Shown: positions 8,807-48,057, counted from the stretch's first letter. The stretch: DNA of 52,901 bases from Candidatus Kuenenia stuttgartensis (GCA_945872305.1 CAMCAC010000002.1:1-52901), one strand, 5' to 3'. Numbers and translations are program-made. Notes: generated from the sequence alone by a model not told the origin.

Positions 8807-8992
8807 GCGATCGGGTCCTTGCCAGGGCGGCTCGCCCAGGGGAAGTGGGGACCGTACCCGTTTTCAGACCAAGGGCAATCGAAGCACCGCAAGCCCATGA
8901 TATCAAATGACATATGGGCAGCCCTTGGGAAAAATGGGCCTGTATCGGGCTGATACGGTGGACCGTTGCCGCCAGATTGGCACAACCAGACG

Positions 8993-9868
8993 ATGTCAGG
9001 AATGACCGATACCGTCTGCTTCCTGTCGCCGCGGGATCTCGGCCACGCCATCGGAGTCAGTGAATCCACCGTCAAGCGGTGGATTGATGGAGGCCGTCTG
9101 CGCGTCATGCGCACACCCGGCGGGCATCGCCGCATCCCGATCGGGGAGACCATCCGCTTCATCCGGGAACAGCGCTGCGACATCGACCGTCCCGAACTCC
9201 TCGGGATCGAACCTGGCACGGTGGAATCCGGGCTCGCCGGAGAAGCCCTGGCGGCGCCGCTCACCACGGCACTCGAGGCAGGCGACGAGGCCCAAGCCCG
9301 TCGGTTGGTGACCGGGGCGTTCCTGGCCGGACAGGCGGTTGCGGACCTGGGCGATCTGGCCATCCGCCCAGCCCTGCAACGGATTGGGGAATTATGGCGT
9401 CATGGTGATGATGGCATCGCCATCGAACATCACGCCGTGCAGATCTTGGCAGGTGTCCTCGAACGCCTGCGCGCCATGCTGCCGCACCCCGGACCCGATG
9501 CGCCGACCGCCATTGGCGCCGGCCCATCCGGCGACCCCTATCATCTGCCCTCGGCCATGGCTGCCCTGGTCCTGGCTGAACGGGGATGGCGGACGATGAA
9601 CCTGGGACCGGATACGCCCCGGGCGGCCTTCCTGTCAGCCCTGGGCCGACACCGCCCGAAGCTCGCCTGGTGCAGCGTCTGTGCGCCGCCCTCCCCAGGC
9701 CTGGGCGACGATCTGGCCGTCTTGGCCCGACATGGAATGCGGATTGGAACCCGTTTGGTGGTCGGCGGACGCAGTGCCCCCATACCGGGGCCGGAAGCAG
9801 GATGGCATCGGGTCGAATCCATGCGCGCCCTGGGCGAGTACGGATACCGGCTCGCATCGCTCCACTGA
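8993..9868 (+). CDS. HTH (excisionase/MerR-type) regulator with a B12-binding-like C-terminal domain (CarH/LitR-like)
   Basis: N-terminal LSPRDLGHAIGVSESTVKRWIDGGRLRVMRTPGGHRRI is an HTH_17/MerR-like helix-turn-helix. A WRHGDDGIAIEHHAVQIL helical bundle follows, then a Rossmann-like AIGAGPSGDPYHLPSAMAALVLAERGW. The start is taken at the ATG at 8993; the tracked ORF begins at a TTG at 8966. Confidence 0.6.
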   Translation: MSGMTDTVCFLSPRDLGHAIGVSESTVKRWIDGGRLRVMRTPGGHRRIPIGETIRFIREQRCDIDRPELLGIEPGTVESGLAGEALAAPLTTALEAGDEAQARRLVTGAFLAGQAVADLGDLAIRPALQRIGELWRHGDDGIAIEHHAVQILAGVLERLRAMLPHPGPDAPTAIGAGPSGDPYHLPSAMAALVLAERGWRTMNLGPDTPRAAFLSALGRHRPKLAWCSVCAPPSPGLGDDLAVLARHGMRIGTRLVVGGRSAPIPGPEAGWHRVESMRALGEYGYRLASLH

Positions 9869-10975: not shown

Positions 10976-13648
10976 TCACCCGACCAGGGAATGGGCCCAA
11001 CGGGCAAGTGCCGCGGCCAACTCCGCCTGCCGGACCGGTTTTGCGAGGTGGTCGTCCATCCCGCTGAGCAGGCAGCGGTCGCGGTCCTCATTGCTGGCGT
11101 TCGCGGTCATGGCGATGATCGGCGTGTGCTGACCGGAGCCCGCTTCCATGGCCCGGATCGCTTCGGTGGCCTGATACCCATCCATCTCGGGCATCTGGCA
11201 GTCCATGACCACGATGGCGAATCCGCCACCCGTATGGGCCTCGACCGCCGCACGCCCATCCCCGACCACGACGACGGTGCAACCGAGTTTGGCGAGCATG
11301 GCGGACGCCACTCGCTGGTTCACCGGATTGTCCTCGGCGAGCAGGATGCGTAGGCCAGGTGGCAAGGCGGCCGGCACCCCGCTGACCGGTGTGGAACGGG
11401 CGGCGGGCTCCGCGATCGGCAGAGGAACGCGGACCGTGAAGGTGGTGCCTTGGCCAGCCTGGCTGGCAAGATCGATCCTCCCGCCCATGGCCTCGACCAG
11501 GCGACGGCTGATCGCCAGCCCCAGACCGGTTCCTCCGTATTGGCGGGCGGTCGAGGCGTCCGCCTGGGTGAACGGGGAGAACAGCCGCTCCTGCTGGTCG
11601 GAAGTGATCCCGATCCCGGTATCCGCCACCGCCACAACCATGCCATCGGGGTCATAGGCGAGACGGATCGTGATCGTCCCCTTGCGGGTGAACTTCACCG
11701 CATTGCTGACCAGATTGGTCACCACTTGGCGCAGACGACCAGGATCGCCCCGCAACCATGCCGGCGTGGCGGGATCGATCCCCACGACCAGGGAGACGGC
11801 GCCATCCGCCAGACGACCCCGGAACAGGGTGGCGACATCGGAGACCAGTTGGCGCGCGTCGAAGGGGATCGCCTCCAGCTCCAACCGGCCGGCCTCGATC
11901 TTGGAGAAATCAAGGATATCGTTGAGGATGGCGAGCAGGGACTCGGCGGAACGGTAGACGGTGCGGGCCACTTCGTCCTGCTGGGGCGTGAGGCCCATCC
12001 CAAGCAGAAGCTCGGTCATGCCCAGGACCCCGTTCATCGGGGTGCGGATCTCGTGGCTCATGTTCGCCAGGAAAGAGCTCTTTGCCGCAGTGGCCAGTTC
12101 GGCACGGCTGGCCAGATCGGTGGCAATGGCGGTCTGCCGCTCAAGGTGGCGGTTCAGGGTTGCCAGTTCCACCTCAGCGAGCTTGCGCTGGGTGATGTCC
12201 GTGCTGATGGCGACATGGCGCAGGACCTGTCCGTCGGCCCCGGTGAAGGGTGCGACGATGGTGTCCGACCACCACGTGGTCCCATCCTTGGCCCGGTTGC
12301 ATAGTTCGCCGCGCCAGACCTCCCCGGCCTTGATCGTATCCCAAAATCCGGCCCAGAATGCGGGAGAATGTGTGCCGGAGTCGACCAGGCGGTGGGTGGA
12401 TCCGATGAGCTCACCCCGGGAGTAACCAGATACATGGCAAAAGGAGGCATTCGCATCAATGATGGTCCCGTGGGGATCAGTGACCGTCACCAGGGCATGA
12501 TCATGGATGGTCCTGGTCAGGAACTCCGCCTCACGCAGGGCGGCCTCGGCACGGGTGGTCTGGGCCTCCAGGTCCCGGGTCATCCGCCGGGCATGTTCCA
12601 AGGAACGGGCTTGGCCGGCGACGGCCTGCCAGACCGCCAGGGCGGCGAGGATGGTCAGCAGGGATCCGCCGACGGCTACGGCGATGGGCAGGGATGATTG
12701 GACCGTGGCCAGGAATCCTGGTTTGGCGCGGATCTGGACTGCCAGGGTCCGGTCCGCCAGGCTCACCGAAAGGATGCGCTGGTACGGGCCCGGAGGATGA
12801 CGCTCCGCATCCATGGCGCCGGTCGCCAGGTCGCTGGCGTGGTCCGCGTCGAAGATGACCGGATCAGTCACCGAGGGACCATCATGGAGCAGAAGATCCG
12901 CCTGCCCATCGAGGCTCAGCTCGATGTCTGCCAGCAGTTCGCCCACCACGATCGGCGCATAGACGAGGCACTCCAGGTCCCGCCGCCGCTCCTCCGCGGT
13001 CGCGGGGCGGGTGCTGTTCACATAGACCGGCAGCAGGACAAGGAATCCGGGGCCCTGGCGACCGTCCTGGACCAGCACCACGCTGCGGGTCAGGGCGGGA
13101 TCCCCGGTGGCCACCGCCGCTTCGGCGGCGGCCCGCCGGCGGGCTTCGGAGCCGATGTCGAATCCCACCGCGGCCAGGTTGCGCCCGACCGGCTCGATGA
13201 CGGTGATGACGAAGCAGTCGCCGGCATCCCCCGAGGTGCGCACCGCGAAGCCGGGTGCGCCATCGGCCTGCTCCCGGGCGATCAGGTCCGCGAGACCCGC
13301 CCGCTCCACGCGGCGGATGATCCCGAAGCCGCGCACCCCCGGGAACTCGCTGGCCAGATCCCGGGCCGCCACGAAGGCGGCGAACTCTGTGCGTGTCACC
13401 CGCTCGCTGGCGGCAAAGATGCCTTTGGCTCCACGCAGGCCGTAGATGGGGCGGTTGAGGCGAGCGCCCACATCCGCCACGGCCCGTTCCGCCAGGCGGT
13501 CGAAGCGGACCTGGGCCTCCGACTGATGCGTCCGCCAGACCCGCCAGCCGAGCAGTCCGCTCCCGGCCACGCCCATCATGGCCAGGATCAGGATCAGCCA
13601 GCCCAAGGGCATGGTCCGCCGGTAGGCCATCTGCGTCCGCGATCCCAT
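10976..13648 (-). CDS. Hybrid sensor histidine kinase (TM - CHASE - TM - PAS - HisKA - HATPase - REC)
   Basis: CHASE-like periplasmic region (RFDRLAERAVADVGARLNRPIYGLRGAKGIFAAS...VITVIEPVGRNLAAVGFDIGSE), PAS domain, H-box [17 protein letters not shown]-box GGTGLGLAISRRL, and a receiver with [11 protein letters not shown]...[12 protein letters not shown]...LAKP. The start is uncertain: an ATG at 13648 preceded by GGGAGG, or the tracked TTG at 13705. Confidence 0.85.
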   Translation of the reverse strand: MGSRTQMAYRRTMPLGWLILILAMMGVAGSGLLGWRVWRTHQSEAQVRFDRLAERAVADVGARLNRPIYGLRGAKGIFAASERVTRTEFAAFVAARDLASEFPGVRGFGIIRRVERAGLADLIAREQADGAPGFAVRTSGDAGDCFVITVIEPVGRNLAAVGFDIGSEARRRAAAEAAVATGDPALTRSVVLVQDGRQGPGFLVLLPVYVNSTRPATAEERRRDLECLVYAPIVVGELLADIELSLDGQADLLLHDGPSVTDPVIFDADHASDLATGAMDAERHPPGPYQRILSVSLADRTLAVQIRAKPGFLATVQSSLPIAVAVGGSLLTILAALAVWQAVAGQARSLEHARRMTRDLEAQTTRAEAALREAEFLTRTIHDHALVTVTDPHGTIIDANASFCHVSGYSRGELIGSTHRLVDSGTHSPAFWAGFWDTIKAGEVWRGELCNRAKDGTTWWSDTIVAPFTGADGQVLRHVAISTDITQRKLAEVELATLNRHLERQTAIATDLASRAELATAAKSSFLANMSHEIRTPMNGVLGMTELLLGMGLTPQQDEVARTVYRSAESLLAILNDILDFSKIEAGRLELEAIPFDARQLVSDVATLFRGRLADGAVSLVVGIDPATPAWLRGDPGRLRQVVTNLVSNAVKFTRKGTITIRLAYDPDGMVVAVADTGIGITSDQQERLFSPFTQADASTARQYGGTGLGLAISRRLVEAMGGRIDLASQAGQGTTFTVRVPLPIAEPAARSTPVSGVPAALPPGLRILLAEDNPVNQRVASAMLAKLGCTVVVVGDGRAAVEAHTGGGFAIVVMDCQMPEMDGYQATEAIRAMEAGSGQHTPIIAMTANASNEDRDRCLLSGMDDHLAKPVRQAELAAALARWAHSLVG

Positions 13649-13775
13649 GGGCCTCCCGAGCGCGCCTGCTGCACCAGCATACACTTGGACACAAAGGATC
13701 GTCAAGATCCGGAATCAGGCGGCGGTTGCGCAGACTGGCACCGGTGCGCGGGCGGATCGTGGGGTATGATAGGGC

Positions 13776-16331
13776 GTGAGCAGCGATCGACCTGTCATAC
13801 CCGGCTTCACGGTGCAGGGCCTGCTCGGCCAAGGCGGCATGGCCACGGTGTGGCGGGCCGAGCAGGAGGGCCTGGGCCGCCAGGTCGCCCTCAAGGTGGT
13901 CCTGCCGGAGTACTGCGCCCATCCGGAATTCCGCGCCCGCTTCCTGCGCGAGGCCCAGGCCTGCGCCAAGGTCAACCATCCACATGTGGTCGGCTGCTTC
14001 GCGGCCGGCGAACACCAGGGTCGGCTGTACATGGCGCTGGAGCTCCTGCCGGGCGGCGACCTGATGCGCCTCCTGGTTCGGCGCGGCGGCCAGCTCAACG
14101 AAGCCGCGACCCTGACCATCGCCCGCGACTGCCTGGCGGGACTCGAGGCGATCGAGGCGGCCGGGCTCATCCACCGCGATCTCAAGCCCGCCAACATCTT
14201 CCTGACGGCGGACAACCGGGCCAAGATCGCCGACCTCGGCCTGGCACGCCAGACCGCCGGCGATGCCGCCCTGACCATGGCCGGATTGATCGTCGGCACC
14301 CCGTCGTACATGCCCCCGGAACAGGCCCGGGGCGAGGCGGATCTGGACATCCGTTCAGATCTCTACGCCCTCGGCGCGACCCTGTTCCACCTGATCACCG
14401 GCCGGGCGCCGTACCAGGGCCCGGATCCGGTATCGATCCTGGTCAAGGTCGTCTCGGACCCGGTTCCGGACCCGCGCGACTGCGGTGCCGAGGCCAGTCC
14501 AGGCTTCACCCGCTTCCTCCAGATCCTGACCGCCAAGGAACGGGATCGGCGGTTCGCCTGCGTCGCGGATGCCCGCGCTGCGCTTGAAAAACTGCTCACC
14601 AGCATGCCGGCCCAGCCGGCCATGACGCCGGCTCCGACCCCGGCCACCCGACCGACGGAAGCGGTCGTCCGCCGGCCGATCACCCCTGTAGCCACTCCGG
14701 CGCTCGACCCGGTCCAGCTTGAGCGGCTGGTGCGGCGGGTCGTGGTCGACCAGGGCGGCTGCCGGGCCTGCCTGATCCTGGCTCCGGGCGCGAGCTTCCC
14801 GCGGGTGGTCCTGCGCGAGGTCCTGAAGGCGGCCGGCATCGCCTACGGCGTGATCCCTGCGGCGGAACTCGAGGCGACCCGCCCCAGCCAGCAGCCCCGG
14901 CGGCTGATCATCGCCCGTGGCGATCCACCGGCTCCGGGCATATCCGGCCGTTCGGTGTTCGGCCTGCCGCTCGATCCGGATGCCGCGGCCATCCAGATCC
15001 GGGTCGCCGAGGACGGGATGTCCGCAGCCGCGTTGGTCCGGCCGGGGGAACTCGTGCCCAGGCCCGAGCTGGAGCGTGAGATCCGACGCAGCGGTGTGCG
15101 TTTCGGAATCGAGGCCGACGCGCTGCGCCGCCTGGTCGAAGGACCTGCGGATCCGACCGGCAGGGTGGTGATCGCCAGAGGCCGAGCGGTCGATTCCGGA
15201 CAACCGGCCAGATGGACGCTCGTCGGGGGACCGGCGGCGAGCGGACTGCCCCGTCCGGTGGAGCCGGGGCAGATCGTAGCCACCTGGGATGAAGCCCGCA
15301 CCGGACGGGAAGGGATGGATGTGCAAGGCAATCCCATCGCGACCTCGGCGCCGCTTGCGGGGACCCCCGACACCCTGACCGGCGAGGGCGTGGAGCCCGG
15401 TCGTGACCGCGACGGACGCCTGTGCCTTCGCGCTTCCCGGCCCGGATCGGTGCAACGGCAGGCGGACGGGACGGTCCGGGTGGTCGAGGTGCGGACCATC
15501 CGCCATGATCTGACCGCTGCCGACGAGCCGATCACCGGCGACTCCGTGGTGGTGATCGAGGGCTCGGTGCTGGCCGGAGCCCGCATCTGCACGACCAACG
15601 ACATCATCATCACCGGTGACATCGCGGATGCGCACATCGAGACCGGGGGCATGCTCCAGGTCAGCGGGGCCATCATCCCCGGCGAGCGTCCGCTCGTCGC
15701 CGCGGCGGGCATCGAAGCCGGATCCCTGGAGGGCCGCCAGGTCATCGCCGGCTGCGTGCGCATCCGAGGCACCATGACCGGCGGTGAGATCATCGCCAAC
15801 GGGGCGATCGAGGTCGAACGCATCGTCGGCGGGCGGCTTGTCGCCTCCGGGACGGTGACCGTGGGAAGCGCCGGCGATCGCGATGGGACCACCACGGAAC
15901 TCTGGGCTGGACGCAGCCTTGCCCTCGCGGAGCAGGCGCGCTTGGCGAAACTGACCGATTCCCGACTGGAGTCGGACCGCCTGCGCGTGGTGGCCGAGCT
16001 CCAGAGCCTGGGACTGGAGGCGGATCATGAGGCCCGCCGCCAGCTCCGACTGGCCGCCGGCACGACCAAGCCCGAGGAGATGCAGCGGCTTGAAGAGCGT
16101 CTACGGCGGCTCAAGGACCAACAGGAGCGGGCCCGCCGCCTCGAAGAGAACGCGCGTCGGAAGCTGTCCGCCGTGCGCACCGACAGCGACCGGCTGGAAC
16201 GGGCCTCGGTGAAGATGGACACCGCCGTCATGGTGAGCGGAGCGGCCCACGCAGGGGTGGTCGCCAGACTCGGCGACGCCGAGGCGGTCGTTCTCGATAC
16301 GACCCGCCCGGGCTATCGGCTGGGCGCCTGA
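13776..16331 (+). CDS. Ser/Thr protein kinase fused to a FapA/DUF342 domain
   Basis: Hanks kinase motifs are present: GQGGMATVW, VALKVV, HRDLKPANIF, DLGLAR, GTPSYMPPEQ. After a Pro-rich linker come FapA_N-like modules (CRACLILAPG...AGIAYGVIP; IRVAEDGMSAAALV) and a beta-helix (IITGDIADAHIETGGMLQVSGAI...GGRLVASGTVTVGSAG). A coiled coil and the characteristic C-terminal tail finish the protein. GTG start. Confidence 0.8.
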   Translation: MSSDRPVIPGFTVQGLLGQGGMATVWRAEQEGLGRQVALKVVLPEYCAHPEFRARFLREAQACAKVNHPHVVGCFAAGEHQGRLYMALELLPGGDLMRLLVRRGGQLNEAATLTIARDCLAGLEAIEAAGLIHRDLKPANIFLTADNRAKIADLGLARQTAGDAALTMAGLIVGTPSYMPPEQARGEADLDIRSDLYALGATLFHLITGRAPYQGPDPVSILVKVVSDPVPDPRDCGAEASPGFTRFLQILTAKERDRRFACVADARAALEKLLTSMPAQPAMTPAPTPATRPTEAVVRRPITPVATPALDPVQLERLVRRVVVDQGGCRACLILAPGASFPRVVLREVLKAAGIAYGVIPAAELEATRPSQQPRRLIIARGDPPAPGISGRSVFGLPLDPDAAAIQIRVAEDGMSAAALVRPGELVPRPELEREIRRSGVRFGIEADALRRLVEGPADPTGRVVIARGRAVDSGQPARWTLVGGPAASGLPRPVEPGQIVATWDEARTGREGMDVQGNPIATSAPLAGTPDTLTGEGVEPGRDRDGRLCLRASRPGSVQRQADGTVRVVEVRTIRHDLTAADEPITGDSVVVIEGSVLAGARICTTNDIIITGDIADAHIETGGMLQVSGAIIPGERPLVAAAGIEAGSLEGRQVIAGCVRIRGTMTGGEIIANGAIEVERIVGGRLVASGTVTVGSAGDRDGTTTELWAGRSLALAEQARLAKLTDSRLESDRLRVVAELQSLGLEADHEARRQLRLAAGTTKPEEMQRLEERLRRLKDQQERARRLEENARRKLSAVRTDSDRLERASVKMDTAVMVSGAAHAGVVARLGDAEAVVLDTTRPGYRLGA

Positions 16332-16348
16332 TCCGCGCAGCGGATCAG
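16328..16348. terminator. Perfect hairpin spanning both convergent stop codons (kinase::FapA and cheW)
   Basis: CTGATCCGC-gca-GCGGATCAG is a 9-bp perfect stem with a 3-nt loop. It contains the + strand TGA (16329-16331) and the - strand stop (16345-16347). There is no U-tract. Confidence 0.45.
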
Positions 16349-16764
16349 GCCGCCGGGTCGACTGCGCGCTCGGGATCGAGCAGCAGGAGAAGATGGCCGG
16401 TCAGCTTCGAGACCCCTTTGAGGAAGGGGCGGACCTGGTCCGAGACGGTGTCCGGCGTCGCCTCGAAATCCGCATCCGGAAGATCGAGCACATCACCGAT
16501 CTCGTCCACGACGAGACTGACGACACCGGTGGCGGTACGCACGACCACATTCACGGACGACGCACCCTCCGCGCGCTCCGGCAACAGCAGTCGCCGGCGC
16601 AGGTCGATCGCGGTCACGATCTGACCACGCAGGTTGATCAGGCCCTCCACCGCAGCCTCGGCCAAAGGGACCGGAGTGGTCGGCTGGCGACGCAGGATCT
16701 CCTGGACGTGGGCAACGGCGATGCCGTACAGGCGCCCGTCGAGACGGAACGTGCAGGTCTGCAT
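16345..16764 (-). CDS. cheW: Chemotaxis coupling protein CheW
   Basis: 139 aa, and FRLDGRLYGIAVAHVQEILR...INLRGQIVTAIDLRRRL is a classic CheW fold sequence. Its start lies 1 nt after the cheA stop. Confidence 0.9.
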   Translation of the reverse strand: MQTCTFRLDGRLYGIAVAHVQEILRRQPTTPVPLAEAAVEGLINLRGQIVTAIDLRRRLLLPERAEGASSVNVVVRTATGVVSLVVDEIGDVLDLPDADFEATPDTVSDQVRPFLKGVSKLTGHLLLLLDPERAVDPAA

Positions 16765-16765
16765 G

Positions 16766-18982
16766 TCAGGCCTCCGCCAGCGCCGGAAGCGCGGCTTTCA
16801 CGACGTGATCGATGGTGAGCAGCTCGGTGACCTTGCCGCGCACGACCAGGCAGCCGGCGATGCCGGGCCGGGTGGCCGGGCGCAACGCGGTGATGTCCTC
16901 CTCGACCGTGTCGAGGATCTCACCGACGACCAGGCCGATCATCTGGTCCCCGTGCGCATGCACCACGACCGGCAGCGTCCCGGGTTTCACGCCCGCATCC
17001 GGATTGCGGGGGTTCTTCCGCCGCTCAGCCAGGACCCTGAACACCCGCACGAGCGGCATGATGCCACCGCGGTACTGGATGACCTCCTGGTTGCCCATGC
17101 GCTCGATCTGGTCCTCGCGCAACTCCTCCAGGCGGTTGACCGCCGCCAGGGTGACCGCCATGCGGCCGTCGTCCGGACTCCTGAAGACGAGCAACGGGGT
17201 GAGGACCGGACCGGAGCCGCCCGCGGAGCCGGAGCCCGCATCCTTGCGCGAAGCGACCTTGGCCCGCTTGGCCAGACCGACCGGGTCGATGATCAGGGCG
17301 ACCCTGCCATCCCCCATGATCGTCGCCCCCGAGAACACCTCGATGCCATCGAGCTGGCGACCCAGCGGCTTGACCACGATCTCCTGGGTATCCTGGACCC
17401 CATCGACGATGAGGCCGTATTGCCGGTGGTCGGCCTGCAGGATCACCACCCGGACCGGACCACCGCCGGGCGGCGGCGTCAGGCGCAGCTCCCCGGCAAG
17501 GTCGACCAACGGCAGGAGCTGGCCGCGCAGGCGCAGGACCCGGGCATCGTAGACGCTCTCGATCTGGGTCGCCACCTTGTCCGCCGGCACGCTGACCAGT
17601 TCGAGCAGGGATACCTGGGGGATCGCGAAGCGCTGACCGGCGCAGGTGACGATGAGGGCGGGGATGATGGCGAGGGTCAAGGGGATCTTGACCATGATGG
17701 TCGCGCCATGGCCCGGCCGGCTGGCCACGTCGACGGTCCCACCGATGCGCTCGATGTTGGTCCGGACCACATCCATGCCCACGCCACGGCCGCTGATGCT
17801 GGTCACCTGTTCCGCCGTGGAGAACCCTGGGGCGAAGATCAGGGTGACGGCCTCGCGGTCGCTCATCTTCGCTGCCTGCTCGGCGCTGATGACCCCCTTT
17901 TCGACCGCCTTGGCCTTGACCCGGCCCGGGTCGATGCCGCGGCCATCATCGTCGATCTCCACCACCACCTGGCCGCCATCATGGCGGGCGCGCAGGGTGA
18001 TCCGGCCTTCAGCGGGCTTCCCGGCGGCCACCCGCTGATCCGGCATCTCGACGCCATGGTCAACGGAATTCCGCACCATGTGGGTGAGAGGGTCCTTGAT
18101 CGCCTCGATGATCGTCTTGTCGAGCTCCGTCTCAGCCCCCTGCATCTCGACGCGGATCTGCTTGCCGAGCGATTTGCTGAGATCGCGCACGATGCGCGGG
18201 AGCTTCTGCCACACCGCACCGATCGGTTGGAGGCGGGTCTTCATCACCCCCTCCTGCAACTCGGTGGTCAGCTGGTCGAGGCGGGTCGCGGCATTGCTCA
18301 ATCCCGCGTGGCGGATGCCTCCCGATTCCTGGAGGATGCGGTTGCGGGCCAGAACCAGTTCGCCGACGAGGTTCATGACCCGGTCGAGAAGCCGCACGTC
18401 GACCCGAAGGGTGCTGTCGGCAATGGAACTGCCCTCACCCGACCGGGCCGGTTCGCCCTCAGGCGGATGCGGGGGGTGGGCCTCGACGGGCGAGGCGACC
18501 ACTCGGGGTGCTGGAGCGGGTGCGGAATCGGCAACGGGGACGGGCACCGTCACCGGCTCCGGGGTTGCGACGGGTGCCGCTGCCGGCGCGTGATGGGAAC
18601 CGGTGGCGAGGGCGTGCAATGCCTCGATCAGCGGTTGATCATCACCAACGTTCTCGGCACCGCCGTGCTCAATGTCGGAGAGCAGGGATCGGACGCGATC
18701 GCCCATCGCCAAGAGGGCGGTGGACATGTCTCCATCCAGGACCAAGGCTCCGTCACGCAATTTGGAAAGCAGGTTCTCCCCCGCATGGCACACGGCCTGG
18801 AGCCGTGAGAACCCGAAGAAGCCGCTGGTCCCCTTGATGGTGTGAATGGCGCGGAATACGCCGGCCAGGAGTTCCTTGTCCCCTGGTCGATCCTCCATCG
18901 CCATGAAATCGCGGTCCAGCCGGTCAAGGTTCTCGTGGCTCTCCACGAGAAAGTCTTTCACGAGGTCGTCGAGGTCACCCAT
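16766..18982 (-). CDS. cheA: Chemotaxis histidine kinase CheA with two C-terminal CheW-like domains and no receiver
   Basis: Hpt His box AIHTIKGTSG, N box HMVRNSVDHG, G1 DDGRGID, F box FAPGFST, G2 GRGVGMD. These are followed by P5 (VVILQADHRQYGLIVDGVQDTQEIVVKPL) and a second CheW-like region (LLVFRSPDDGRMAVTLAAVNRLEEL...MIGLVVGEILDTVE). Confidence 0.9.
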   Translation of the reverse strand: MGDLDDLVKDFLVESHENLDRLDRDFMAMEDRPGDKELLAGVFRAIHTIKGTSGFFGFSRLQAVCHAGENLLSKLRDGALVLDGDMSTALLAMGDRVRSLLSDIEHGGAENVGDDQPLIEALHALATGSHHAPAAAPVATPEPVTVPVPVADSAPAPAPRVVASPVEAHPPHPPEGEPARSGEGSSIADSTLRVDVRLLDRVMNLVGELVLARNRILQESGGIRHAGLSNAATRLDQLTTELQEGVMKTRLQPIGAVWQKLPRIVRDLSKSLGKQIRVEMQGAETELDKTIIEAIKDPLTHMVRNSVDHGVEMPDQRVAAGKPAEGRITLRARHDGGQVVVEIDDDGRGIDPGRVKAKAVEKGVISAEQAAKMSDREAVTLIFAPGFSTAEQVTSISGRGVGMDVVRTNIERIGGTVDVASRPGHGATIMVKIPLTLAIIPALIVTCAGQRFAIPQVSLLELVSVPADKVATQIESVYDARVLRLRGQLLPLVDLAGELRLTPPPGGGPVRVVILQADHRQYGLIVDGVQDTQEIVVKPLGRQLDGIEVFSGATIMGDGRVALIIDPVGLAKRAKVASRKDAGSGSAGGSGPVLTPLLVFRSPDDGRMAVTLAAVNRLEELREDQIERMGNQEVIQYRGGIMPLVRVFRVLAERRKNPRNPDAGVKPGTLPVVVHAHGDQMIGLVVGEILDTVEEDITALRPATRPGIAGCLVVRGKVTELLTIDHVVKAALPALAEA

Positions 18983-19047
18983 GGGGAAGTGAACACCCGA
19001 TCCAGCTCCTCGTCAACCGGGTCCAGGCCGGTGTGGGGGGATGGCGT

Positions 19048-22000
19048 TCAGGGGGCGTAGAGCGCGACCCGGCCCACCGCGTCCGCGGCGACCAGACGCC
19101 CATCCGCGGTGACCGCCGCCGGAAGGACTGCGCCGCGGCCGGTATGGGTGAACCCACGGGGCCCGACCACCACCATCCGATCACCCACCGGCACCGCCAC
19201 GTGGCCATTCCAAGCCATGGGAATGCCGGTCGGAGCACCGGGAAGGACACCCAGGTCGATCCATCCACCGGAGCGCAGCCAGACCCGGTTTCCAGGACTG
19301 ATCAGGACATCGGGACCGGCCGAGAGGGCTTCATCCACGGGCAGCGGTTCCGCTCGGACCACGCCATCCTTCCAGGACCACGACGCATTGGCGCTGATGC
19401 CCTGCCAGCCGGTCCCTACCGGCCAGGCGGCAAGCACGGGGCCGGGCACGAGGCCTGTCAGTGCAGGACGGCCATCCTCCACGGTGAGGACCTCGATCAC
19501 GCCGTCGGTGCGGACGGCCGAAACCCGACCGGCGGCGGCGTGCGGTGCGGCGATGAAGGCCGACCCGCCGGCACCGGACCAGACGGTACGGCCGTCGTCG
19601 CCGACACCGTGGATGCGTCCATCGATGCCGGCAACGATGAGCCAGCGGCGATCCGTGAGCAGATCACTGGTGCCGGCCGCGAGGGCGAAGCGGGTTCCGG
19701 ATGGCAGGACCAGACGGCGGGTACGATTGGGCAGGATGCCCCAAGCCACCGCATCCGGTGAAGCGAACCACAATCCATCCCCCAGATCGACGGCCGGGGC
19801 GAGCAACGGCGCCACGTCCAGGGAACCACCCTGTTCCAGAGCCATGGCCGGAGCCGGGTCCCCGCCATCCGCGGGCAACACGACCGCGGCGGTGCGCGAA
19901 GCGACCACGACCCGGTCTCCCAATGCCACCGGCCGGGCGGTGATCGGGCGGTCGAGTTCATACAGGCGCAAGGGGCTGCGAAGCAGCAGCGCGGCGACAC
20001 GCCAGCCATTCTCGGCATCGTGGCCGTTGACCGTGGTCGGCTCGTAGCCCGAAAGCGTGAATGTGAAGACGGCCTCGCTGCGTTCCAGGGAGCTCAGGTT
20101 GAGCACAAGGGGCGTGAGACCAAGAACCCGGCCGGCCACGCTGACGGTCGCACCGGACGGAATCGATTCGACCTTCACCGGGAGGTGGCGGAGTCCCATC
20201 TCCCGGGCCAGCACGCTGGCCACAGCCATGTCCCCGGCCTGGACGGCCGCATCCAGCCGGTCCGCCAGCAGGCGACGGCGCTCCTGGGCCTCGCGCACTT
20301 CGGCCAGGCGTTGGGCCGCCTCGGACAGGGCCGCCGTGCGACGGGCGAAGGCACTGTCGATGAGCTCGATGAGCTGGGCGGCCGCCTCTTCGAGGTCCCC
20401 CTCCCGGCGGTGGGTCAGGGCCGCATCCAGCTGGACCTGGGCCGCCCGCTCGCGCTCATTCAGGCGGGCCAGACGGTTCTCGATCAGGGCGGTGGGCGCC
20501 CCCGGCTGCGTGGCACGGGCGCGCAGGAGGGGAATCTCGTCGGCGATCGGGAGGGATGCCGCCGCGAGTTCCAGTTCGGTGGCCAGGGCGAGTTCGGACC
20601 GGATCGCTGGCATGCGTGGGTGGGCCGGCAGCCGCTCCTCGAGATCCTTGACCCGCATGGCGGCGGCGCTGGCCGGAACGGCAGGATCCCCGGCCACACA
20701 GGCGGCGACCATGCCCCCCACCGTCTCGACCTCCCGGTCGGCCTGGTCGGCGCGGTCGAGCACGGCGGCAAGGACCGGTTCCAGTTCGCTACCAGCCACC
20801 CGGTCCGCAATCCCGCTCCGCGACACGGTCTCGCGCATCTCCGCCAGCCGTCCGGCCGAGACCTGCTGATCCAAGGCCGCGATGGCGGTCTGGGTCTGGG
20901 AGATGGTCTGGGCGACCTCACGACGGGCCTGCTCGGCGGCAAGCTGCTGGGTGTCGTTCGGTCCCGAAGCCAGCACCGCATCGATGAGACGACGGCGACG
21001 GACGATGGACTCGTTGGCTGTACGGGCGCTCTCCAGGAGGACCGTGCGCCGGCGATCGAGGATGGCCTCGGCCGCATCGCGCTCGGGGCTCGGCTGGCGC
21101 TCGATCTCGGCCAGGGCGGCGGGGAGATCGTCGCGACTCAGATGGGCGGAGACCGCCGTCTGGATGGCATCGCTCAAGCGCTGGAACTCGGTGAGGGAAC
21201 GCTGAAGGCGCAGGGTGAGTTCGGTGCGCGTCGGATCGTCGGGCAGGACGGCGGCCGCCTCGGCGGCATCGCCGAAGGTCCTGGCGGCGATGAGTTCATC
21301 GATGCGCTTGCGCTCTTCGTCGAGGGCCTTGGCAAATGCCTGCTCGCCGGCCTGGACCCGGCGCAGGGCGCTCAGGTCCGAACCGGCCTGGGCGCGGGCT
21401 TCGCCCAGGCTGGCGGCGGCCGCGTTCCAGGACCGCGTGCGGATCGCCTCGTTGGCGGCATCGAGCCGGGAGGACAGCGCCTGGGAACGGCCGCTGTAGG
21501 TGACCGCCAGGTACGCGACCCCGGCCATGACCACGAGCAGCACGACCAGTCCGATCAGCACCGCCGGGGAGCGCCGACGGGGGGCGGTGACTGCGGAGAT
21601 CACCAGATCGGATTCCGCCGCAGGGGCCTGGGTCACGCGGAAGGAGCGCGTACCGGCGCCCGGCATCCGCCGCACGATCTGCTTCTGGAGGAGTCCGCGC
21701 AGCACCCGGGCCACCTGCGGACAGGATTCGCGCATGATCCCGGCAAGATCCTCGACCGAGCGGCGCCCGTCGACCAGGTTCAATACCTGCCGGTCGATGT
21801 CGGAAAGGGCTCCCGAGGCATTCGAGTTCTCGGTGAGGGCGAAGACGGAGTCCCATCCCCCCACATCCTGGGCCACCGCGGCATCCTCGCTCGAGCGGGC
21901 GCCGGCGGTGCGGACCAGGATCTGCGGGTCGATGCGCAGCCGGATCGCCGAACGGTCGTAGGCGAGCTGGTCGGGATGTTCGTCGATGAATTCGGGCTGC

Positions 22001-22389
22001 CCGGGGGAAGCCAGGAGCTGGACCAGGGCGTCCTCGACCAGGGCCTGGCGGACCGCCTCGATCTCGCCATCCGACACCGCCTGTTGGCGCTGGAGGAAGG
22101 CGATCGGATCACCAACCTGGGGATCCGCGACCAGCCGATGCAATTCCGGACCGATCTTGTGGTGATCGAGGAGTTTGTCGGCCAGCAGCCGGACCTGGGG
22201 CTGGGCCAGGTCCAGGGCCACCAGGTCGCCATTGACGAATCCGACGCCCCGGGCCAGAGGGAGTCCATCGAGCACGAGCATGCCGGTCCGCCGCGTACGG
22301 TGGGCGGCGATGAGCATCTCGACGAGGATGGCGTTCAGCATGCGCGGGTCCGATCCGGGGGCAGGGTACCCGGCGAGGGGTTCCGCCAC
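19048..22389 (-). CDS. Large single-pass membrane protein: DUF4388/PATAN-like + wHTH-like, TM, long coiled coil, PEGA, beta-propeller
   Basis: N-terminus LNAILVEMLIAAHRTRRTGMLVLDG...GFVNGDLVALD is a DUF4388-type motif. SDIDRQVLNLVDGRRSVEDLAGI follows, then the TM segment AVLIGLVVLLVVMAGVAYLAV and ~480 aa rich in A/E/R/L. The PEGA motif is ESIPSGATVSVAGRVLGLTPLVL. The C-terminal Gly/Trp-rich repeats look PQQ/BamB-like. The start is either the GTG at 22389 or the ATG at 22341. Confidence 0.7.
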   Translation of the reverse strand: MAEPLAGYPAPGSDPRMLNAILVEMLIAAHRTRRTGMLVLDGLPLARGVGFVNGDLVALDLAQPQVRLLADKLLDHHKIGPELHRLVADPQVGDPIAFLQRQQAVSDGEIEAVRQALVEDALVQLLASPGQPEFIDEHPDQLAYDRSAIRLRIDPQILVRTAGARSSEDAAVAQDVGGWDSVFALTENSNASGALSDIDRQVLNLVDGRRSVEDLAGIMRESCPQVARVLRGLLQKQIVRRMPGAGTRSFRVTQAPAAESDLVISAVTAPRRRSPAVLIGLVVLLVVMAGVAYLAVTYSGRSQALSSRLDAANEAIRTRSWNAAAASLGEARAQAGSDLSALRRVQAGEQAFAKALDEERKRIDELIAARTFGDAAEAAAVLPDDPTRTELTLRLQRSLTEFQRLSDAIQTAVSAHLSRDDLPAALAEIERQPSPERDAAEAILDRRRTVLLESARTANESIVRRRRLIDAVLASGPNDTQQLAAEQARREVAQTISQTQTAIAALDQQVSAGRLAEMRETVSRSGIADRVAGSELEPVLAAVLDRADQADREVETVGGMVAACVAGDPAVPASAAAMRVKDLEERLPAHPRMPAIRSELALATELELAAASLPIADEIPLLRARATQPGAPTALIENRLARLNERERAAQVQLDAALTHRREGDLEEAAAQLIELIDSAFARRTAALSEAAQRLAEVREAQERRRLLADRLDAAVQAGDMAVASVLAREMGLRHLPVKVESIPSGATVSVAGRVLGLTPLVLNLSSLERSEAVFTFTLSGYEPTTVNGHDAENGWRVAALLLRSPLRLYELDRPITARPVALGDRVVVASRTAAVVLPADGGDPAPAMALEQGGSLDVAPLLAPAVDLGDGLWFASPDAVAWGILPNRTRRLVLPSGTRFALAAGTSDLLTDRRWLIVAGIDGRIHGVGDDGRTVWSGAGGSAFIAAPHAAAGRVSAVRTDGVIEVLTVEDGRPALTGLVPGPVLAAWPVGTGWQGISANASWSWKDGVVRAEPLPVDEALSAGPDVLISPGNRVWLRSGGWIDLGVLPGAPTGIPMAWNGHVAVPVGDRMVVVGPRGFTHTGRGAVLPAAVTADGRLVAADAVGRVALYAP

Positions 22390-22409
22390 AAGCCCGTGTC
22401 GCCGGACGC

Positions 22410-22435
22410 CTCCGGAGCGGACCGACGCTCCGGAG
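22410..22435. repeat. Perfect 10-bp inverted repeat between the GT2 gene and the DUF4388 gene
   Basis: CTCCGGAGCG-gaccga-CGCTCCGGAG. Each arm also contains the TCCGGA palindrome. It lies in the 51-nt spacer between the stop at 22441 and the start at 22389. Confidence 0.6.
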
Positions 22436-22440
22436 CCCGG

Positions 22441-24678
22441 TCAGCGGGCGGCGGGGTCGACGCCATGCGTCGTCTTCTCCCAGCGGTGCGGTTTGACCAT
22501 CAGGTGCCAGAGGGCGCGCCATGCGGCCACCCCCTGGAGCACCCAGTAGAACGGCACCAGGAGGGCGGCCCCGATGAGTCCATGCTGACCCGGGCGCCGG
22601 CCCGCCGCCAGGGCGACGGCGATGAAAATGATATTGGCCGCGGTCAGCACCGCAGAGGTCACCGCGAAGGCGATCGACCAACCGGACAGCACCGGGTCCT
22701 CGTCCGGACCGGTCCAGGCCAAGGGCCAGGACCAGCGCTGGTCCCACAGAGCCTCGTCCCCGCGCCGGATGAGGAGCGACCAGGGATCCGCCCCCAGGAC
22801 CGCCCAGTCCCGGGCAAGGGAGCCCAGATAGGCCAGTTCCAACCCCCACAACGGCAGGGCCAGCGCCGCCAGCAGCGGCACCAGGGTCACCGCCGCCGCG
22901 AAGCCGGGCAGGCCCGCGGGCCCGAGCCGCCACGCCGTGGCGACCGGCGTGCGCCACCACACGAGATGGGTGGCGTAGTAGCCCTTGAGCCAACGGGTCC
23001 GCTGCTTGATCCAGGCACCGACGTGGCCGACCGCCTCTTCCCAGGTCACCGATGCCAGCAGTCCGGTGCGGTGGCCGCGCAGATGCAGGCGCACTCCGAG
23101 ATCGCAGTCCTCGGTGACGTTGAACGGATCCCAGCCGCCGACCTCGCGCAGCACCGCGGTGCGGAAGTGGTTGCTCGTCCCGCCCAGGGGCACCGGGCAG
23201 CCGAGCCGCTCCAGACCGCGCAGGTAGCGGCGGAACCAGACATTGTACTCGATGGTGAACCAGCGGGTGAGCAGGTTGGTGTCGTGGTTGCGGAACGCGA
23301 GCTGGGCCTGGAGGCAGGCGAGCCGGGGCGGGGCGGCGGCAAAAGCCAGGGCCGCCTGCTTCAACTGGTCCGGCTCCGGCCGGTCCTCGGCGTCGTAGAT
23401 CACCAGCAGATCGCCGGTAGCCAGGACAAGGCCGTGGTTGCAGGCCCGGGGCTTGGTCTTGGGCCGGCCCTCGGGCACCACCACCAGGCGCATCCACGGC
23501 GGCAGCGGTCGGGCCTGGAAGGATGCCAGGGTGACCGCGTCGTCCGGCTCCATCAGGACCAGCACCTGGAGCCGGTCCCGGGGATAGTCGAGGGCGGTCA
23601 GGGCGGCGACGAGCTGCCCGACGATCTCCGGCTCCCGGTACAACGGCACCAGCACGGTGTAGGACGGCCAACCGCCCGGGGGCGCGACCTCGGGATCCGC
23701 CGCCCGGTCGTCCCGGCGCTCCGCCCCGCCGCCGACGACCAGCGCGAGCAGGCGGTAGGCGATGGCGAAGGCGAACACCAGGCTGAGCAGACCGACTCCG
23801 ACGCCCAGGGCGACCAGCCAGTCGCGCCCGGCCAGGAACAGCGCCGCCACCGGCAGGGCCGCCAACCATGGCTCGAACCCGCGCCCACCGCCACGACGGA
23901 ACAGGAACTCCCCGGCCAGCGACAGGACCACGGCGCCGCCGGCGATGCCCGCCAGGGCGCCGGGGATCGAGCCCAGCCAGCGCATGGCCTCGGCCCGCAG
24001 GCCGGTGAGCCCGGTCGCATCGGCACCACCGGCCAGCCAGGATCCGCCCACCGCCGCGACGGCGAGCAGCGGCACGCACAGGGCCAGCCAGCCCCAGGCC
24101 ACGGTGCGCAGGGCGCTGGTCGGCTCATGGGCCGCGAGATAGGCATCGACCAAGGGATCCCGGCCATCGGAGCCGGGGATCACGGTCACCGGCGCCGCCG
24201 GCCACCAGGGCGAGCCGGCGGGATCCGCCACCACGGCCGTGCGCCCCCCGTCGACCCGGTGGTCCAGGTCGATGCGCCAGGTCCGGCCCTCGGGCAGGCA
24301 CGCCGCCACCTTTTCCGGCCACTCGACCACCGCCACCGCGCCGGCGGAGGCCTCGCCGAATCCGATGGCCTCCAGCTCCCCGGGACCCGACAGCCGCGAG
24401 GCGTCCACATGGACCACCGGCACCCCGGCATCGTATTGATTGAGCAATGTATACGTGGGCGACGCCACCAAGGCCGCATCCCCGCCCAGCGCCGCCACCA
24501 GGGCCCGGGTGAAGGTCGTCTTCCCCGCCCCCATGGGCCCGGTCAGGGCGATCGCATCCCCGGCCGCCAACCGAGGGGCCAGACTGCGGGCCAGGTCGGC
24601 GGTGGCCGCGGCGTCGGCGAGCGGAAATGGGACAGGATCGGGCACGGCGGCAGGATGCGGAGGTTCAGGGCACGGCAA
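22441..24678 (-). CDS. TsaE-like P-loop ATPase fused to a multi-pass processive family-2 glycosyltransferase
   Basis: aa ~20-150 carry TsaE hallmarks: GPMGAGKTTF, SPTYTLLNQY, HVDASRL, VVEWPE. aa ~190-315 hold about 4 hydrophobic helices. From aa ~340 come the GT2 motifs VLVPLYRE, VIYDAEDRP (DxD), TEDCDLG and QRTRWLKGY (QxxRW), then C-terminal TM helices. It is one uninterrupted frame. The start is the tracked TTG at 24678 or the GTG at 24645. Confidence 0.75.
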   Translation of the reverse strand: MPCPEPPHPAAVPDPVPFPLADAAATADLARSLAPRLAAGDAIALTGPMGAGKTTFTRALVAALGGDAALVASPTYTLLNQYDAGVPVVHVDASRLSGPGELEAIGFGEASAGAVAVVEWPEKVAACLPEGRTWRIDLDHRVDGGRTAVVADPAGSPWWPAAPVTVIPGSDGRDPLVDAYLAAHEPTSALRTVAWGWLALCVPLLAVAAVGGSWLAGGADATGLTGLRAEAMRWLGSIPGALAGIAGGAVVLSLAGEFLFRRGGGRGFEPWLAALPVAALFLAGRDWLVALGVGVGLLSLVFAFAIAYRLLALVVGGGAERRDDRAADPEVAPPGGWPSYTVLVPLYREPEIVGQLVAALTALDYPRDRLQVLVLMEPDDAVTLASFQARPLPPWMRLVVVPEGRPKTKPRACNHGLVLATGDLLVIYDAEDRPEPDQLKQAALAFAAAPPRLACLQAQLAFRNHDTNLLTRWFTIEYNVWFRRYLRGLERLGCPVPLGGTSNHFRTAVLREVGGWDPFNVTEDCDLGVRLHLRGHRTGLLASVTWEEAVGHVGAWIKQRTRWLKGYYATHLVWWRTPVATAWRLGPAGLPGFAAAVTLVPLLAALALPLWGLELAYLGSLARDWAVLGADPWSLLIRRGDEALWDQRWSWPLAWTGPDEDPVLSGWSIAFAVTSAVLTAANIIFIAVALAAGRRPGQHGLIGAALLVPFYWVLQGVAAWRALWHLMVKPHRWEKTTHGVDPAAR

Positions 24679-25145: not shown

Positions 25146-25211
25146 TCCAGGATCACACGCCGCATCCCTTGACCCCGGCCGCGCCGCCCATGCTGCGTCC
25201 ATCCGGATGAC

Positions 25212-25386
25212 GGATGCGGGAGAAGGCCTTTTTCCACCCTGGGGTTCCACCCCCGGATGGGAGCCGGGCTGCCGAAGGAGTCACGCTCTCAGGCCAAAGG
25301 ACCGCGTCTCGACGGAACCCTGGAAAGAGGGGCCTCCTGCCCCCGCCGACGGAGTCACGCTCTCAGGCCACCAGACAGGGATGGAA
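25212..25386 (+). promoter_or_regulatory. Tandem glycine riboswitch (two aptamers) in the gcvP leader
   Basis: Aptamer 1 reads GCGGGAGAAGG...GCCGAAGGAGTCACGCTCTCAGGCCAAAGGACC. Aptamer 2 reads CTGGAAAGAGG...GCCGACGGAGTCACGCTCTCAGGCCACCAGACAGGG. Both match the conserved GGAGA / CCGAAGGrGCAA / CUCUCAGGCaaAAGGAC cores. The 20-mer GGAGTCACGCTCTCAGGCCA occurs twice (25277-25296, 25351-25370). It sits immediately upstream of a glycine-cleavage gene. Confidence 0.8.
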
Positions 25387-31600: not shown

Positions 31601-32235
31601 AGCACAGGCCAGGCCGGGATCCAGGTGGCAAGACTCCATGCGGTTGCGTCGATATCCATGCCGATGACGACGCGCGGGCCCCCGTCCCGGCCCTGGGTGC
31701 GTACCGGGACCAGACCACTGACCCAGGTCCCCCAACGATCGGTGTAGGGCCCTTCGACCCCCTCCGTGCCCACGTCCAGGGCGGCGTGGACCAACGATGG
31801 CGCCTCCTGGTAGGGATCTCCCGGCGCGACCACGTCCGGCGAGTCCTCCGGCTCGCTGTCCAGGAGAAAGAAGACTCCCCGCTCCGGATCCTTCCGCAGC
31901 AGGTAGATGAATCGGCATCCGGGGGTCGACCGCTGGAACGCGGTCAGCCGCTCCTTGAACCGATGATAATCCGGCCGCTCCACATCGCTGGGCACCCCGG
32001 CAAGCCGGTCCAGCACTTCGGCCGGCATGCTTTCCGAGAGCAAACGCACCGCCTGAAGGAGATCCGCCCGGGCCTGACGGTCGGCCAAGGCGACCAGCCA
32101 AGCACTTATCACCACGGTGATCAGCAGCACCCCACCCAGGGCGAGCACCAGCAACCGGATCCCCGCCCGGGAGCCAGCCACCTGGGAGGACGCCGTGTCA
32201 TCCGTCCAATCCGCATGGCTGGCAGAACGATCCAT
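28609..32235 (-). CDS. Hybrid sensor histidine kinase (two extracytoplasmic sensor modules - PAS - GAF - HisKA - HATPase - REC)
   Basis: TM segments bracket a sensor with [16 protein letters not shown] (Cache/PDC-like flavour), followed by a second TM-bounded module. Then come PAS ([18 protein letters not shown]...[12 protein letters not shown]), a GAF-like region, H-box [29 protein letters not shown], and a receiver with [11 protein letters not shown]...[10 protein letters not shown]...LSKP. The C-terminal ~450 aa are clearly paralogous to the kinase at 10976-13648. Confidence 0.85.
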
Positions 32236-32276
32236 CGTGCCAAGATACCCCGAAGGGGATCCGCCGTCCAGCCGGC

Positions 32277-40571: not shown

Positions 40572-40621
40572 TCGGCATCTTTACAGGCGCCCCACGGGCC
40601 GACAGTGGGATTGGAGCCACC

Positions 40622-42682: not shown

Positions 42683-42689
42683 TCCAGCG

Positions 42690-48055: not shown

Positions 48056-48057
48056 GA

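Follow-up and report, generated by a model that had tools for sequence, protein, structure and literature searches.

A PATAN-domain envelope protein encoded upstream of an F5-type CheA-CheW pair in Planctomycetota: a candidate scaffold or sensor for a chemosensory array

This analysis concerns a block of four genes in a 52,901-nucleotide stretch of DNA from Candidatus Kuenenia stuttgartensis (GCA_945872305.1, CAMCAC010000002.1:1-52901; the whole 52.9-kb stretch is referred to as the window). The closest relatives of the window are uncultured Planctomycetota metagenome-assembled genomes (MAGs), and its G+C content is ~70%. Positions 16345-24678 are filled by four minus-strand open reading frames (ORFs) with a third-position G+C (GC3) of 0.82-0.87, which is of the coding type. 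They encode CheW, CheA, a bitopic envelope protein of about 1,100 amino acids (the giant) and a fusion of TsaE to a family-2 glycosyltransferase (GT2). As discussed below, the giant may be an envelope-spanning scaffold or sensor that is co-expressed with a conventional CheA-CheW core. The features of the block are as follows:

16326-16350, minus strand: GC-rich hairpin of 11 bp, GCCUGAUCCGC-UGC-GCGGAUCAGGC
16345-16764, minus strand: cheW (139 amino acids, single CheW domain)
16766-18982, minus strand: cheA (738 amino acids)
19048-22341, minus strand: giant, a bitopic envelope protein (1097 amino acids from ATG 22341; 1113 amino acids from GTG 22389)
22342-22440, minus strand: spacer of 99 nt between the TsaE-GT2 stop and the probable giant start
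22441-24678, minus strand: TsaE-GT2 fusion (745 amino acids)

The first-pass annotation of this DNA had described four tightly packed minus-strand genes, and these are present, with 65 nt between the giant stop and the cheA start and 1 nt between the cheA stop and the cheW start, as that annotation stated. Its third junction, 51 nt between the glycosyltransferase gene and the giant, holds if the giant starts at GTG 22389. In the homologue alignment, all giant homologues begin with MLNAILVE, which corresponds to ATG 22341; the giant therefore probably starts at this ATG, and the spacer is 99 nt long.

The hairpin at 16326-16350 spans the cheW stop codon and ends one base before the stop of a convergent Ser/Thr kinase gene. 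Its fold (-33.5 kcal/mol, z = -3.64) was not matched in stability by any of 200 shuffled sequences, and it is probably a bidirectional terminator that closes the unit. A scan of 16-25.4 kb identified no sigma-70-type promoter and no intergenic T-tract terminator, the spacer included; one terminator-like site lies within the TsaE-GT2 ORF, a count below that of shuffles. A 10-bp GC hairpin (CUCCGGAGCG/CGCUCCGGAG) directly follows the TsaE-GT2 stop within the spacer. The spacer fold is no more stable than shuffles (z = -1.4), and the related locus L001 has a different hairpin at the equivalent position, followed by a conserved stretch. We infer that the genes of the block are co-transcribed. The convergent gene (13776-16331, plus strand) encodes a Ser/Thr protein kinase fused to FapA_N and a FapA beta-solenoid (DUF342, 'flagellar assembly protein A'), and its stop codon is directly followed by the terminator-like hairpin of cheW. 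This kinase-FapA gene was considered as a part of the module and rejected, as it is not conserved beside cheW in any relative.

The cheW product is readily recognized (Pfam CheW, 114.9 bits). It matches the solved CheW structures 2qdl, 3ur1 and 2ho9 and aligns to Thermotoga maritima CheW (3ur1). The sequence GLINLRGQI, which contains the conserved NLRG arginine (equivalent to R62 of E. coli), is invariant in nine orthologues. Compared with the CheW proteins encoded 3' of cheA in eight relatives, the window protein shows 47-53% identity.

CheA has the conserved domains Hpt (59.4 bits), H-kinase_dim (62.1 bits), HATPase_c (72.3 bits) and CheW (130.2 bits). It is laid out as P1/Hpt, a Pro/Ala-rich linker (in place of P2), P3, P4, P5 and a further CheW-like domain at the C-terminus. 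Pfam detects CheW in two stretches, and the C-terminal ~150 amino acids are read as the second of these domains. The motifs HTIKG (with the histidine at position 47), HMVRNSVDHG, DDGRGI, GFST and GRGVGMD are present and the N, G1, F and G2 boxes are intact, such that the kinase is catalytically intact. In a survey of 13,673 CheA proteins, two CheW domains are nearly confined to the F5 class and are rare in F1 and F10, and 99% of F5 CheAs carry the duplicated CheW domain (PMC10542144). F5 is a flagellar, MCP (methyl-accepting chemotaxis protein)-based class that has been studied in Caulobacter crescentus, Azospirillum brasilense and Rhodospirillum centenum (PMC10542144). Because the window CheA has two CheW domains, the hallmark of this class, it can be assigned as F5-type by domain architecture, as distinct from phylogeny.

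CheA homologues are abundant (more than 8000 at E-values of 1e-20 or lower), and the closest full-length ones are 57-64% identical with the same length and architecture. The nearest CheA is that of L002 (64-65% identity), whose gene is divergent from flgH-flgI-flgN. P0064 is a 954-amino-acid CheA with 51% identity to the window protein and has a cheW directly downstream (53% identity). L011 encodes cheY-cheX-cheA-cheW adjoining cheB, and its CheA and CheW are 51% and 53% identical to those of the window. The matches also include P0077, a 952-amino-acid protein from a Nitrospinae MAG. Judged by these comparisons, the window CheA-CheW is not unusual as a kinase pair.

The structure of the giant was modelled with AlphaFold2 on 35 homologues (mean predicted local distance difference test score, pLDDT, 87.2); a single-sequence prediction of the N-terminal 278 amino acids reached a pLDDT of only 39. 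The predicted domains are as follows:

21652-22341, minus strand: cytoplasmic PATAN/DUF4388 (PatA_N) domain, amino acids 1-230; alpha/beta, with an inserted helical stretch and a winged-helix-like C-terminal part
21502-21570, minus strand: single transmembrane helix, amino acids ~258-280
20200-21489, minus strand: periplasmic alpha-helical repeat region, amino acids ~285-714; ~15 helices of 10-33 residues
19942-20184, minus strand: PEGA-like beta-sandwich, amino acids ~720-800
19051-19929, minus strand: BamB-like (PQQ_2-type) beta-propeller, amino acids ~805-1097

In the window giant DUF4388, PEGA and PQQ_2 each score below the Pfam cutoff (18-20 bits). DUF4388 (PF14332) reaches 18.3 bits against a cutoff of 25, and all nine orthologues match this domain at E-values of 0.01 or lower (best E-value: 3e-6). 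PEGA has an E-value of 0.002 in the window protein and matches five of nine orthologues, and PQQ_2 matches six of nine. At the family level the three assignments are supported by these orthologue matches and by the AlphaFold model.

Residues 1-230 are modelled with a pLDDT of ~90 and align with the PatA_N region of a paralogue, giant2 (see below). They are followed by a disordered linker (231-257; pLDDT below 50 over 231-276) and by the sole hydrophobic segment of the protein in Kyte-Doolittle analysis (window 256-284). Because this transmembrane helix comes after the disordered linker and an RRR motif, the N-terminus is predicted to be inside. The helical repeats were assigned by DSSP on the AlphaFold model (pLDDT 80-92), and the PEGA part contains beta strands at 722-795. 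A Foldseek search of the PDB with the full giant model matched the propeller to BamB chains at E-values of 2.5e-11 and below, with target TM-scores of 0.63-0.68. The propeller thereby fits the eight-bladed fold, at 14-19% identity to BamB, a similarity of fold only which does not imply membership of the beta-barrel assembly machinery (BAM) complex. The search was dominated by the propeller and gave no structural neighbour for the PATAN domain, and a sequence search of the PDB with the giant gave nothing significant. The giant contains no receiver (REC) domain and so is not a PatA-type (PATAN-REC) response regulator. A ParP-like identity was also considered and rejected, as the giant lacks a CheW-like domain (aligned by hhalign, the giant and CheW families give a probability of 0.09). 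The cytoplasmic DUF4388 module, PEGA domain and propeller of the first-pass annotation are retained at the level of the family, and its periplasmic "coiled coil" is replaced by ~15 short helices that form helical repeats in the model.

The gene upstream of the giant had been read as a QxxRW-type processive glycosyltransferase with several transmembrane segments. That part of the description stands, but the ORF is an in-frame fusion. Amino acids 21-147 are a TsaE domain (TIGR00150 equivalog; 81.8 bits, cutoff 60.1) that includes the Walker A motif GPMGAGKT at position 47. About 3-4 transmembrane segments separate it from the GT2 domain (338-607; Glyco_tranf_2_3, 100.4 bits; TED at 522 and QRTRW at 559), and three more at the C-terminus place transmembrane segments on both sides of the GT2 domain. 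By these motifs and segments the GT2 domain can be classified as a processive family-2 glycosyltransferase (BcsA/NodC/PgaC-like); no equivalog model reached its cutoff, so no product polymer is assigned. The fusion is real because L001 contains the same 745-amino-acid TsaE-GT2 ORF, 88% identical over its full length without an indel. In L012 (13588-15846) and L022 (4771-7362), tsaE and the orthologous GT2 are separate abutting genes beside giant homologues; the L012 proteins are 49% (GT2) and 43% (TsaE) identical to the window domains. The arrangement looks like a stepwise gene fusion. TsaE is a housekeeping ATPase of N6-threonylcarbamoyladenosine (t6A) synthesis, and its recurrent position suggests that a TsaE-type ATPase and a polysaccharide synthase may be functionally connected.

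An exhaustive HMMER search of 1.84 billion cluster representatives identified 106 matches to the giant at E-values below 1e-3 and 42 below 1e-30, about 35 of which are full-length, collinear proteins of 1,100-1,200 amino acids. By this census the giants form a tiny, lineage-specific family of Planctomycetota. A word-indexed protein search with the single sequence or a nine-sequence profile retrieved, besides the protein of the window itself, a single relative (70%). Metagenomes were scanned with a nine-sequence alignment, and the genomic context of the giant could be read in 22 places. In many of these the giant is accompanied by giant2, a 1,350-amino-acid PATAN paralogue (hhalign 99.9%, E-value: 5e-31, 1000 columns) with PatA_N, a double zinc ribbon, TPR (tetratricopeptide repeat)-like helices, PEGA and PQQ_2. 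A giant2 hidden elsewhere in the window was sought and rejected, as no tblastn match exceeded 60 bits. In the literature on PATAN/DUF4388 and CheA in Planctomycetes only cyanobacterial work was found, with no description of the giant family or of its link to cheA-cheW. The components are of known kinds (F5 CheA, CheW, PATAN, PEGA, BamB-like propeller, GT2 and TsaE), and it is their combination and conserved neighbourhood that are new.

In 13 places (L003, L004/L009, L005-L008, L010, L015-L019 and the P0015 contig), here termed clade A, the giant lies directly upstream of cheA(-cheW). The genes run giant2-giant-cheA-cheW on a shared strand; giant and cheA are separated by 40-175 nt, whereas cheA and cheW overlap or abut. 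The contigs of L018 and L019 end within cheA, before cheW. CheA identity is 71-92% within clade A and 59-60% between clade A and the window, and the giants of clade A are only ~30% identical to that of the window. GT2 is absent from the clade A clusters, where the paralogous giant2 takes its place. The downstream flanks vary, and include a GFO/IDH/MocA oxidoreductase, a DCC1-like protein, an FAD-oxidase/Fe-S protein, an extracytoplasmic function (ECF) sigma-like protein and aspartate-semialdehyde dehydrogenase. The window lineage, made up of the window and L001 (truncated after the giant), has TsaE::GT2-giant-cheA-cheW. The very distant L012 and L022, with giants of 23-25% and 27% identity, respectively, have giant-tsaE-GT2. 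The giant-GT2 link spans a G+C content of 45% (L012) to ~70% (window). In L012 giant2 is directly upstream of the giant, and in L022 the upstream ORF is cut by the contig end. Of the remaining loci, L014, L023 and L025 carry giant2-giant followed by unrelated genes (Rce1-like, lytB and methyltransferase, respectively), and L013 and L024 carry the giant alone.

By these comparisons the 13 places and the window amount to two deep lineages with giant-cheA-cheW adjacency. The giant, usually with giant2, is the constant element, to which cheA-cheW is attached in two deep lineages and tsaE plus GT2 in three. The giant-cheA-cheW and giant-GT2 links are each supported because each recurs in relatives (clade A, and L012 and L022, respectively). 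Only in the window lineage are both attached, so the neighbourhood expected from the first-pass annotation is conserved in its two halves and not as a four-gene unit.

Alternatively, the giants, tsaE-GT2 and cheA-cheW may be chance neighbours with no functional coupling, their order having been kept by descent in a few lineages of an operon-poor phylum. The varied contexts of the giants outside clade A, the presence of cheA-cheW without a giant in L002, the partly shared flanks of the clade A loci and the housekeeping role of tsaE are all consistent with this. However, the giant-cheA adjacency has survived divergence to ~30% (giant) and 59% (CheA) identity as well as the exchange of the upstream gene (giant2 or TsaE-GT2) and of the downstream genes, the genes lie 40-175 nt apart on a common strand, and the GT2 link recurs in genomes of 45% and 70% G+C. 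Chance neighbourhood is therefore doubtful, though it is an explanation to be taken seriously.

The search for other chemotaxis genes covered the 52.9-kb contig and 20-kb pieces of relatives. The first-pass annotation had reported no MCP, stand-alone CheY, CheB or CheR in the window, and this was borne out. Pfam scans of every sizeable window ORF identified no MCPsignal, CheB or CheR domain, the MCP hairpin-tip motif was not found in any of the six frames, and a REC hidden Markov model run on all six-frame segments of the window found no stand-alone CheY. The three receiver domains in the window are all parts of larger proteins:

10976-13714, minus strand: CHASE-PAS-HisKA-HATPase-REC hybrid histidine kinase, divergent from the kinase-FapA gene
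28609-32349, minus strand: PAS-GAF-HisKA-HATPase-REC hybrid histidine kinase
47210-48196, minus strand: REC fused to an RsbW-like HATPase_c_2 anti-sigma-type kinase

The flanks of 24 Planctomycetota loci (7-25 kb each) contained neither an MCP nor a REC. L011 has no MCP within 10 kb despite its cheY, cheX and cheB. L024 contains an orphan cheR (16066-16881; CheR_N and CheR) 2.5 kb downstream of its giant homologue, with a YchF GTPase gene and an unknown gene between the two and no other che gene within 10 kb. CheR implies methylatable receptors, so this orphan gene points to such receptors and to dispersed che genes in L024. In this group of Planctomycetota the che genes appear to be scattered as singletons or pairs. 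MCP, CheW, CheA, CheR, CheB and flagellar genes have been reported in a genomic study of soil planctomycetes (PMC6461901).

The first-pass annotation had proposed that CheA-CheW has no MCP partner and that the giant, with or without the GT2, takes the place of the MCP, such that the kinase reads the status of the envelope or of polysaccharide synthesis directly. The topology of the giant is receptor-like (periplasmic propeller and PEGA, one transmembrane helix, cytoplasmic interaction domain), it adjoins cheA-cheW in two deep lineages, its link to GT2 recurs, and neither the window nor the flanks of the planctomycete loci contain an MCP. This last point loses its force because the relatives' loci, including L011 with its cheB, likewise have no nearby MCP; the absence of an MCP within 53 kb is normal for this CheA lineage and so is not evidence of an MCP-less system. 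Furthermore, CheW and the P5 domain of CheA are undiverged from homologues that sit with CheB, CheY and CheX, F5 systems are MCP-based (PMC10542144), the giant-bearing L024 genome has its cheR, the giant has no domain known for binding the CheW groove, and many giants have no adjacent cheA-cheW. An MCP-less architecture is not supported by the intact F5-type CheA, the conserved CheW, the L011 pair with cheY, cheX and cheB or the cheR of L024, and replacement of the MCP by the giant is improbable. In a broader form of this proposal the giant, alone or with giant2, would be a non-MCP transmembrane input to an F5-type CheA-CheW, acting without or alongside a methyl-accepting receptor: the propeller and PEGA would sense an envelope or polysaccharide cue, and PATAN would couple directly to CheW or to the additional CheW domain carried by CheA. 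Such an input is also hard to credit; if present, it would tie the state of surface-polymer synthesis to a flagellar chemotaxis kinase.

Most clade A loci have a prepilin-type N_methyl/DUF1559 gene that points away from giant2 (L003, 1447-2286; L005, 1805-2749; L008, 6101-7114; L015; L017; and the P0015 contig), and a weak N_methyl gene is found near the giant in L012. In view of the known link between PATAN and type IV pili, the N_methyl/DUF1559 gene next to giant2 may be relevant. DUF1559-type genes are very numerous in planctomycetes, so this adjacency is weak evidence. L018 (2085-3668; equivalent to L019 5777-7360) encodes a 527-amino-acid MshEN-domain protein (GspE_N-type, cyclic di-GMP-binding) 2.6 kb upstream of the giant. 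A gene for a STAS protein adjoins the MshEN gene of L018/L019, and in L013 a STAS gene is convergent with that of the giant.

A further explanation makes the giants downstream targets and not scaffolds of the array. As in cyanobacteria, the machinery on which PATAN acts would be that of a pilus, of secretion or of polysaccharide synthesis (here the GT2 or a type IV pilus-like system), and CheA would exert control through an unlinked response regulator. In Synechocystis PATAN is an output domain that binds PilB1 and PilC (bioRxiv 10.1101/2021.06.11.447907), and the prepilin-type genes, the MshEN-domain protein near the giant in L018 and the adjoining GT2 are consistent with this explanation. 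However, the giant has no receiver domain, and there is therefore no phosphotransfer route to it; nor is there a pilB or pilC gene in any of these loci. A role of the giants as targets of the kinase is thus unlikely.

In the proposed model, to which we assign a probability of about 0.5, the giant would serve as a scaffold or sensor hub that spans the envelope, expressed together with a conventional CheA-CheW core and, independently of this, together with a polysaccharide synthase. The model is offered as a lead for further work and not as an established mechanism. It builds on the observed gene content, domain architecture, intact kinase and recurrent neighbourhoods, and is as follows. The cheA-cheW genes would encode a core of the conventional kind, belonging to an F5-type chemosensory pathway associated with the flagellum, and the MCPs, CheY and adaptation enzymes of this pathway would be encoded elsewhere in the genome. 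The giant gene would be kept directly upstream by selection and is probably co-expressed. The giant, usually paired with giant2, would form an envelope-spanning scaffold or sensor, the periplasmic propeller and PEGA of which may contact a ligand or some structure of the envelope. On the cytoplasmic side, the PATAN domain would draw in the CheA-CheW/MCP array, set its position or modulate it. Because the giant is linked to tsaE and a processive GT2 in other lineages, such a hub could organize the chemosensory array jointly with a synthase of surface polysaccharides; one possible site is a single pole of a cell that swims or attaches. We infer the protein-protein contact, the polar location and a binding partner of the propeller; that the giant is polar is pure conjecture. 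Two precedents are consistent with the scheme. PATAN is an interaction and output domain of cyanobacterial chemosensory regulators, in which its partners at the membrane are PilB1 and PilC (bioRxiv 10.1101/2021.06.11.447907), and factors that position arrays are encoded within che clusters in Vibrio (ParC/ParP; PMC5706961).

Several points weigh against this model. None of the domains of the giant is a REC or resembles CheW or an MCP. The GC hairpin after the TsaE-GT2 stop could act as a transcript separator. Giants without a cheA-cheW neighbour occur in seven loci (L012, L013, L014, L022, L023, L024 and L025), and L002, which encodes the CheA closest to that of the window, has no adjacent giant; independent support for the giant-cheA-cheW link therefore comes down to two deep lineages. 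Part of the conservation in clade A may be simple descent.

Several known systems can be compared with the block. As in F5 systems (PMC10542144), CheA has an Hpt-dimerisation-HATPase-CheW-CheW architecture and is followed by a separate cheW, here translationally coupled. Unlike these systems, there is no MCP, CheY, CheB or CheR gene in the cluster or within 53 kb, the window CheA has no C-terminal receiver domain, and the upstream slots are occupied by two PATAN giants or by TsaE-GT2 and one giant. As in the cyanobacterial Tax/Pix operons (bioRxiv 10.1101/2021.06.11.447907), a PATAN/DUF4388 protein is encoded beside cheA and cheW, PATAN being a membrane-proximal interaction domain in those systems. 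In the block, by contrast, PATAN is the cytoplasmic head of a 1,100-amino-acid bitopic envelope protein that lacks a receiver domain, the CheA resembles those of F5 and not those of the type IV pili (Tfp) class, and the cluster has no MCP or CheY. In Vibrio, ParC and ParP (PMC5706961) are likewise non-Che proteins kept beside cheA/cheW, and they position the array at the pole. This resemblance is a functional analogy only and there is no homology; unlike them, the giant has no CheW-like array-integration domain or ParA-type ATPase, and is a transmembrane protein with a large periplasmic part.

The Dif system of Myxococcus and the Wsp system of Pseudomonas resemble the block in that genes for a Che-type kinase are associated with polysaccharide production. 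Both differ in belonging to the alternative cellular function (ACF) class and in having their own MCP (DifA and WspA, respectively) and dedicated outputs in the cluster, whereas the window CheA is F5-like with no MCP or output gene, and its link to GT2 runs through the giant and is not conserved alongside cheA-cheW. The Caulobacter polar organizer PodJ is a bitopic protein with a cytoplasmic interaction domain and a periplasmic repeat/binding domain, and at one pole of the cell the functions of pili, holdfast and chemotaxis depend on it. The giant shares this single-pass arrangement of a cytoplasmic interaction domain and a periplasmic repeat/binding domain, a likeness of layout.

Other features of the window lie outside the block. 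A tandem glycine riboswitch with two aptamers (45.9 and 38.3 bits) is located ahead of gcvP (25207-25380, plus strand). The gcvP ORF as listed (start at 25214) overlaps the riboswitch, so the gene must actually begin further downstream, close to the position (~25440) where the GDC-P domain sets in. On the minus strand, ARAGORN identifies an 84-nt tRNA-Arg(CCG) (9192-9275) within a MerR/B12-binding (CarH-like) ORF (8954-9868) on the opposite strand; one of these two calls is probably wrong. No sizeable ORF in 40600-42900 or 1-2913 has a Pfam or NCBIfam match, and a 970-amino-acid ORF at the left edge of the window is cut by the contig end.

To our knowledge, CheA-CheW cores are thought to be driven solely by MCP-type receptors, the positioning of arrays is largely unknown outside a few model proteobacteria, and ties between PATAN and chemosensory pathways have so far been described only in cyanobacteria, in the form of soluble PATAN-REC regulators. 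Planctomycetota have a swim-or-attach life cycle, and there are almost no functional data on their chemotaxis. If the link between the giant and cheA-cheW is merely positional, the finding comes down to a commonplace cheA-cheW pair, orphaned in a genome whose che genes are dispersed. If the link is functional, the association of the giant with an F5-type CheA-CheW would provide a testable candidate for a factor that anchors or modulates the chemosensory array in Planctomycetota or, less probably, for a new type of receptor.

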